Shown here piece by piece: positions 47,359-47,425 of a stretch of DNA of 47,425 bases; within the stretch, counting starts at the first letter, position 1, and each line of letters starts with the position of its first letter. The stretch lies in IMG/VR virus record IMGVR_UViG_2778261162_000007; one strand, written 5' to 3'. The notes under the pieces were generated by a model. The model made no database searches. It was not told where the DNA came from and saw only the letters and a list, made by a program, of their open reading frames with translations. A program made the translations under genes and the position numbers. The stretch comes from a virus (Duplodnaviria > Heunggongvirae > Uroviricota > Caudoviricetes).

Positions 47359-47404
47359 GGCAAAAATGGGGCAAAACGCTGCAAAAGGGGCAAAAATGGG
47401 GCAA
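47359..47404. repeat. Two direct copies of GGCAAAAATGGGGCAA, 30 bp apart, near the right end
   Basis: Copies at 47359..47374 and 47389..47404; about 20 bp from the window end. Confidence 0.5.
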
Positions 47405-47425
47405 CAAAAGAGTGGGTTATCGTAG

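Follow-up and report, generated by a model that had tools for sequence, protein, structure and literature searches.

The window (the whole 47,425-nt stretch of viral DNA analyzed here) is an ordinary, full-length, 47-kb Rac-type (IntR/XisR) prophage of Escherichia coli located in the 5' end of ttcA. Its two ends are best explained, with a probability that we put at roughly 0.8, as the outer parts of the two attP arms of a prophage clipped at stop codons, with direct repeats that bind the integrase IntR and with two inverted 11-mers that do not act together. Both the integration of Rac at ttcA and its 26-bp core are already published, and a lambda-type attP layout is textbook knowledge; the finding is an ordinary one of little weight for biology at large. 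What is gained is an explicit attP map for IntR, made up of two proximal and four distal GGGGCA units, IHF sites, and a phased GTAG motif, which holds for the whole family of ttcA-integrating prophages across Enterobacterales; no comparable IntR attP map was found in the literature that could be searched.

Prophage identity and window boundaries

The following features of the window are referred to throughout.
1..1236, minus strand: intR, tyrosine integrase of 411 aa ending in ...NARLS and a stop codon that occupies window bases 1-3
1..11, minus strand: 11-mer, int-proximal copy (int strand: GGTTATCGTAG), 75 nt from the core
1238..1453, minus strand: xisR (ydaQ), excisionase of 71 aa (Pfam DUF1233, putative excisionase), annotated as xisR in E. 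coli C7
47208..47259, plus strand: terminator-like hairpin (inverted repeat I1, 20-nt arms, 75% complementary) and T-run (TTTTTGTTTT)
47309..47425, plus strand: 38-codon open reading frame (ORF), probably no gene, whose TAG stop sets the right window boundary
47356..47408, plus strand: outer cluster of GGGGCA units (about 11 bp each), probable IntR arm-type sites of the int-distal attP arm
47415..47425, plus strand: 11-mer, int-distal copy (GGTTATCGTAG); 85 nt separate its end from the att core

The intR gene of the window showed 100% identity to intR as annotated in E. coli C7 and C3, and xisR adjoins it, the pair being 100% identical to annotated genes beside ttcA. With ttcA to the left of intR and uspF to the right of the window, the prophage occupies the classical Rac position; intR was present in 2919 of 5426 complete E. 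coli genomes. IntR carries two Pfam domains, Arm-DNA-bind_2 (PF12167; residues 5-69, E = 6.6e-26) and Phage_integrase (residues 205-391), and XisR has been shown experimentally to be the Rac excisionase (PMC4632033). At the opposite prophage end, the terminator-like hairpin follows a YadA-like gene and marks where the cargo stops, upstream of the attP arm. This last cargo gene (45695-47179, plus strand) encodes a trimeric autotransporter-type protein of 494 aa with about five tandem repeats of about 26 aa each (NNAVINQNINNAKNESLAYTDQQVTK). It was carried by only 76 of 5426 genomes, and its E. coli relatives matched in two pieces with a shorter total (1348 versus 1426 nt), which suggests a variable repeat number.

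Both window ends coincide with stop codons: the intR stop (minus-strand ORF 1..1236) finishes at base 1, and the TAG stop of the plus-strand ORF 47309..47425 finishes at base 47425. Among IMG/VR contigs, 69 of 80 with this integrase ended exactly at the int stop, as did 60 of 80 from the PHB10-type relative, and four shared the right-hand TAG end of the window. This pattern of ends leads us to infer that a predicted prophage was cut back to the stop codons of the first and last ORFs called in it. The window therefore starts and finishes in outer attP-arm sequence (attL and attR in the lysogen), and the 11-mer match looks terminal because the window ends at gene-call boundaries rather than at the ends of the prophage. 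The 38-codon ORF was rejected as a real gene: a Pfam search returned no family, an in-frame TAG breaks it in Rac-SA53 and in locus L094, and its upstream half is unconserved, the sequence before the repeats being unrelated in other relatives. The inverted repeat includes the int stop at its edge, and its inverted copy thereby supplies the TAG that closes this spurious ORF. A caution follows for the use of prophage records: trimming to gene boundaries removes the att core and can give rise to repeats that look terminal.

Attachment core, empty site, and intact attP

The initial annotation had remarked that attachment cores are normally direct repeats and that an inverted terminal match would be unexpected for one, and it had proposed aligning the ends with host flanks and an empty attB. 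That comparison bore the remark out, placing the core in ttcA, outside the window. The att core is a 26-bp sequence (TTGTTCAGGTTGTATTGTTCTTTCTT) inside the 5' end of ttcA, present as a direct repeat at both prophage-host junctions: at the left junction, read in E. coli C7, it lies 75 nt from window base 1, and at the right junction, read in E. coli EC11 (98% identical to the window), it starts 85 nt past base 47425. The window therefore lacks 186 nt of attP, core included. The same 26 bp are annotated as the att site in the Rac-SA53 record and are consistent with the published attL, attR, and attB of Rac (PMC4632033). An empty attB, reconstructed by joining the flank on the ttcA side to the core and to the flank on the uspF side, aligned without a break, at 100% over 526 nt, to Rac-free E. 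coli, and intact attB was found in 2489 E. coli genomes. The 11-mers, inverted and absent from attB, are not an att core.

Intact attP junctions with both arms were recovered from IMG/VR contigs and two chromosomes (L085, L086, L089, L096, L097, L099-L101, L106, L109, L223, and L224), in which the 186 nt between the two 11-mer copies can be read directly. Junctions of attP type occur inside chromosomes and prophage contigs (L085-L109; L223/L224; L241). In L241, which shares the MAG contig JAGTSE010000010.1 with L200, a PHB10-type int remnant and its proximal arm connect, via the core, with a distal arm that belongs to a Rac-type prophage of about 40 kb; junctions of this kind indicate tandem or successive integrations at ttcA. 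In two further IMG/VR loci (L102 and L110), Rac-type distal arms meet a different flank after part of the core only (…CTTGTTGAGATTGTAGAGTATAAACCGCTGCACATT…), which could be secondary-site integration or a host with a different target.

Integration also alters the target gene. The first codons of ttcA and the region upstream of them are replaced by a phage mimic (MQENQQIKKKEQYNLNK versus MSQNQEISKKEQYNLNK in the host; L001 2926-2949 and L002 4460-4483), and the same replacement of the ttcA 5' end was observed in IntR-family prophages of about 50 Enterobacterales species (loci L195-L273). In the lysogen, ttcA must consequently rely for its expression on sequences of the phage side, the arm-site region among them. 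Many Enterobacterales genomes (L220-L273) retained only a C-terminal integrase fragment beside ttcA (matching residues ~260-411) together with the proximal arm sites and the ttcA mimic; these loci are decayed prophages that have left a phage-coded ttcA 5' end behind.

Direct repeats as probable IntR arm-type sites

Near the right end, the two direct copies of GGCAAAAATGGGGCAA reported by the initial annotation were recovered at 47359-47374 and 47389-47404, 100% identical and 30 nt apart from start to start. They correspond to the two pairs of distal GGGGCA units: the cluster reads GGTGGCAAAA and ATGGGGCAAAA, then a degenerate spacer unit (CGCTGCAAAA), then GGGGCAAAA and ATGGGGCAA. The 47-kb window held 13 matches to GGGGCAA, 3 of which were packed within 37 nt at the right end. 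On the other arm, just outside the window, AAATGGGGCAAATTGGGGGCAAA lies in the same orientation between the core and the int stop, and the reconstructed attP accordingly carries GGGGCA units at -153, -143, -124, and -113 and at +74 and +84 from the core start.

This arrangement was conserved well beyond Rac. Across seven diverged lineages (A-G), among them phage PHB10 with its intact attP, four distal units were found at core distances of about -154, -143, -124, and -112. Relatives of IntR lie beside ttcA in about 50 Enterobacterales species (genera including Enterobacter, Citrobacter, Klebsiella, Serratia, Erwinia, Pectobacterium, Hafnia, Rahnella, and Dickeya), and in these a proximal TGCCCC-N5-TGCCCC pair always followed the int stop, with the last int codons and the spacers varying freely around it. 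In 17 distinct distal arms, homology started exactly at the first unit, and the cargo upstream was unrelated. Several characteristics of arm-type sites are present: an integrase with an N-terminal arm domain, a non-core motif repeated on both arms and conserved amid diverging flanks, and IHF sites between. On the grounds of conservation, position, and domain content, the direct repeats are very probably IntR arm-type sites, and the resemblance to such sites noted in the initial annotation gains support from the recurrence on the other arm, the fixed positions in seven lineages, and the predicted arm-binding domain of IntR. A search of the available literature for mapped IntR arm sites, footprints, or mutants found none.

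The number of distal GGGGCA units ranged from 2 to 5 among close relatives (two in L099, L101, L223, and L224; four in L107; five in the window, counting degenerate units). Such variation is consistent with slippage between the 16-mers, and a 30-bp deletion variant is the expected product of recombination between them. A match to the 21-nt repeat pattern in an unrelated metagenomic phage (L095) was set aside as chance, being part of a coding sequence (…LGKRGKNGAIK…) that has no integrase in its vicinity.

IHF sites, XisR, and a phased motif on the distal arm

On the proximal arm, a consensus scan placed a perfect IHF consensus (WATCAANNNNTTR) at a distance of 2 nt from the core, and on the distal arm it placed one-mismatch IHF sites at -61 and -44; an IHF footprint in vivo has been reported at Rac attL (PMC8407004). 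An IHF site at the 11-mer itself was rejected: TATCGTAGCTTAT fits WATCAANNNNTTR poorly by hand count and was absent from the one-mismatch scan. Between the arm cluster and the IHF-like site, all of lineages A-G carried a GTAG-like tetranucleotide repeated 2 to 3 times in a phase of about 10 bp, 13-45 nt to the core side of the innermost arm unit (e.g., ATGTAGTTCTGGGTAGCTTTAGGGAG in PHB10; in the window, 47409-47425 plus flank). The phased motif is a candidate site for an accessory protein. Its resemblance to the Xis sites of lambda (TATGTAGT…) is a lead only.

A single published gel shift assay (PMC4632033) bears on XisR: fragment AttM, which served as the negative control, was not shifted by XisR, and fragment AttR was. 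We mapped the primers to the K-12 locus (L111), where AttM spans 2169-2459 and AttR spans 2290-2583. AttM holds the distal 11-mer, all of the repeats, and the phage-side distal arm in full, as far as the core; AttR adds the core and the host flank. An XisR site at the distal 11-mer is disfavored by that one gel shift. For an excisionase, it is unusual to shift only a fragment with core and host flank; GTTGTGATTTTT, at the very end of AttM and next to the core, might be the real XisR site.

The 11-nt inverted match

Window bases 1-11 (CTACGATAACC) and 47415-47425 (GGTTATCGTAG) are exact reverse complements, as the initial annotation had read them; similarity extends no further than 11 nt, and neither orientation is found a second time in the window. 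The proximal copy covers the last base of an Arg codon and the Leu, Ser, and stop codons of intR, and, seen from the core, it lies beyond the proximal pair of arm sites. The distal copy, in a region that reads GTGGGTTATCGTAGCTTATT, spans two units of a 10-bp phased GTrG..TTAT motif (GTGGGTTATC followed by GTAGCTTATT). A remnant of an inverted int 3' end was rejected as its origin, only Leu-Ser-stop being common to the two and similarity ending at 11 nt.

Exact inverted repeats of at least 11 nt with spacers of at most 300 nt were found at about 10 loci in the window, and block shuffles gave 3.2 such 11-mer pairs per 47 kb. For two prespecified 11-mers, the probability of a match is 4^-11 (~2e-7), rising to ~1.5e-5 if both are taken to end in TAG, as in a window cut at stop codons; anywhere between two 150-nt att arms, an 11-bp inverted match is expected ~0.005 times. 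The match at these exact positions is not due to chance, and its terminal location follows from the way in which the window was cut. The exact 11-mer between the arms (a 13-mer, GGTTATCGTAGTT, in lineage A2), set against an expectation of ~0.005, weighs against the explanation that we prefer.

The initial annotation had made the standing of the match depend on the location of the core and on conservation in related prophages: the core defined from the empty site lies elsewhere, while conservation proved partial, with 9 to 11 of 11 positions matching in the Rac clade and no match elsewhere. We compiled 17 pairs of int ends and distal arms, each from one element or one attP junction; 8 matched at 11/11, 8 at 10/11, and 1 at 9/11. 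The imperfect pairs comprised six different single changes on either side, and no compensatory changes were found among the 17 pairs. On the int side, relatives carried the synonymous variants GGCTATCGTAG, GGTTATCATAG, GCTTATCGTAG, and GGTTATCGTAA; distal variants were GATTATCGTAG (also in K-12), TGTTATCGTAG, GGTTATTGTAG, GGTTATCGTGG, GGTTATCGTAA, and GGGTATCGTAG. K-12 Rac, with a 10/11 match, is excision proficient experimentally (PMC4632033). Outside the Rac clade (IntR identity of at least 94%), to which the inverted repeat is confined, int ends differ (…KLAL, …KLAR, and …RLAI before the stop), and neither PHB10 nor any other lineage had a counterpart at the int stop. A perfect 9-bp inverted repeat between the arms of PHB10 (CTATTATGC/GCATAATAG) was rejected as the equivalent: it differs in sequence and position, and ~0.3 repeats of this kind are expected by chance in 411 nt.

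The two copies appear to differ in what maintains them. Among 40 intR alleles, the last 11 nt had 3 polymorphic positions, all synonymous, whereas the gene averages 1.0 per 11 nt and 3 or more were seen in only 10% of its 11-nt windows. The coding copy is thus under no additional constraint. The distal copy persisted in L241 with one change and in L286, where the match extends to 13 nt, despite divergence of the neighboring spacer in both, and some function of its own is therefore likely for that copy, as judged from this pattern of conservation. A natural deletion distinguishes L290 from L286 (both in IMG/VR): 13 nt (TAAACTACGATAA on the int strand) are absent from the L290 distal arm, which for that reason lacks the distal 11-mer.

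Proposed attP function and alternative explanations

In the reading that we prefer, and by analogy with heterobivalent integrases of the lambda type, the N-terminal arm domain of IntR would bind the GGGGCA units, four of them distal (the two 16-mers) and two proximal, outside the window. IHF would bend the attP arms, and arm-bound IntR could then make contact with the core for strand exchange inside the 26-bp identity, with integration swapping the first codons of ttcA for the phage-coded mimic. The 11-nt match would be a resemblance specific to the Rac clade, between the last intR codons and the phased GTAG..TTAT motif on the distal arm, with each copy presumably held by a separate constraint (coding for the proximal copy, an arm element for the distal one). 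The evidence speaks against the two 11-mers working as a functional pair, and there is no sign of joint action. That the intR end of the Rac clade acquired an inverted copy of the distal-arm motif (GGTTATCGTAG[TT]), such that both copies act together only in attP through a shared protein or RNA pairing, is accordingly a reading that we consider quite improbable; if it were true, Int activity or expression would be coupled to the integration state of the phage.

Joint action through a protein would make the 11-mers an inverted pair of binding sites, one per arm, at which an accessory protein (an RDF, a Fis-like protein, or a second Int specificity) bridges or phases the arms. In lambda, Xis and Fis sites lie between the arm cluster and the IHF-type site, and the distal copy here falls within the phased GTrG region that recurs in all lineages between those same landmarks; with 11 nt in the window and 13 nt in lineage A2, the match also exceeds the length predicted by chance, and L241 and L286 retain the distal copy although the spacer has diverged. 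The proximal copy, however, varies synonymously more than the rest of intR, 9 of the 17 pairs are imperfect (and K-12 still excises at 10/11), the int stops of other lineages offer no counterpart, the distal copy has been lost in L290, and XisR fails to shift the published fragment that holds the distal copy and all of the repeats. We regard a protein-bridged pair as unlikely.

Pairing in RNA has the appeal of geometry: in the attP state only, a transcript running from int through attP would carry one half at the int stop and the other 186 nt downstream on the same strand, and a long-range stem between them could alter the stability of the int mRNA. Such retroregulation would be lost on integration, because the halves then lie 47 kb apart, and lambda sib follows the same integration-dependent logic. 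The predicted stem is nevertheless absent from the minimum-energy fold, has an ensemble probability of ~13%, and costs 1.5 kcal/mol to force; at 11 bp, it is far shorter than typical RNase III substrates, which are ~20 bp long; and it shows no compensatory changes in the 17 pairs and no equivalent in other lineages. A sib-like role is very unlikely on these grounds. The exact terminal position of the match in the window is all that speaks for inverted termini as the true ends of a mobile element or genome (transposon-like ends, an ITR, or a 22-bp palindrome at a circular junction). In every genome and intact attP, phage DNA runs on past these positions and meets the 26-bp direct repeats after 75 and 85 nt, and the empty site restores ttcA exactly at the core; the two window ends are never adjacent (no GGTTATCGTAG to CTACGATAACC joint), because 186 nt separate them in attP. 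The junction sequences already refute this reading.

Comparison with known systems

The closest known system is the Rac prophage of K-12 (Liu et al. 2015, PMC4632033), which shares with the window the integrase (98-100% identity), the excisionase, the 26-bp core, the ttcA and uspF flanks, and the arm sequences. One base of the distal 11-mer differs between the two, as does one arm unit (AAGGGGCAA in K-12 and ATGGGGCAA in the window). K-12 Rac is a 23-kb remnant, whereas the window is a full-length 47-kb prophage with different cargo, including the YadA-like gene beside the right arm.

Escherichia phage PHB10 (MK524177) and related ttcA prophages are more distant, with an integrase of 69% identity, yet they use the same core and have the same two-plus-four architecture of TGCCCC arm units at the same distances as in Rac. 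Their int C-terminus differs (…KLAR rather than …ARLS before the stop), and they have no inverted repeat at the int stop.

Lambda provides two points of comparison. Like lambda sib, the distal arm of Rac places sequence beyond attP that is complementary to a region of the int transcript and linked to it in the nonintegrated state only; sib, however, is a self-contained, extended RNase III hairpin, whereas the pairing in Rac would be long range, 11 bp in length, and of low predicted probability, lacking both the stable extended duplex and the covariation of a sib-type element. The likeness to lambda attP is closer. Lambda attP comprises arm-type sites P1, P2, and P'1-3, IHF sites H1, H2, and H', and the sites X1, X2, and F, with the int stop ~80 bp from the core. 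Rac attP likewise has tandem units at ~11-bp spacing between the core and the int stop, further arm units 110-155 bp out on the other arm, and IHF sites between the arms and the core, and IntR, like lambda Int, has an N-terminal arm-binding domain (binding on the Rac side being predicted). The two differ in the arm motif (GGGGCA in Rac, CAGTCACTAT in lambda), in the orientation of the units (all one way in Rac, with P2 inverted in lambda), and in the position of the Rac core within a coding sequence whose 5' end the phage replaces.
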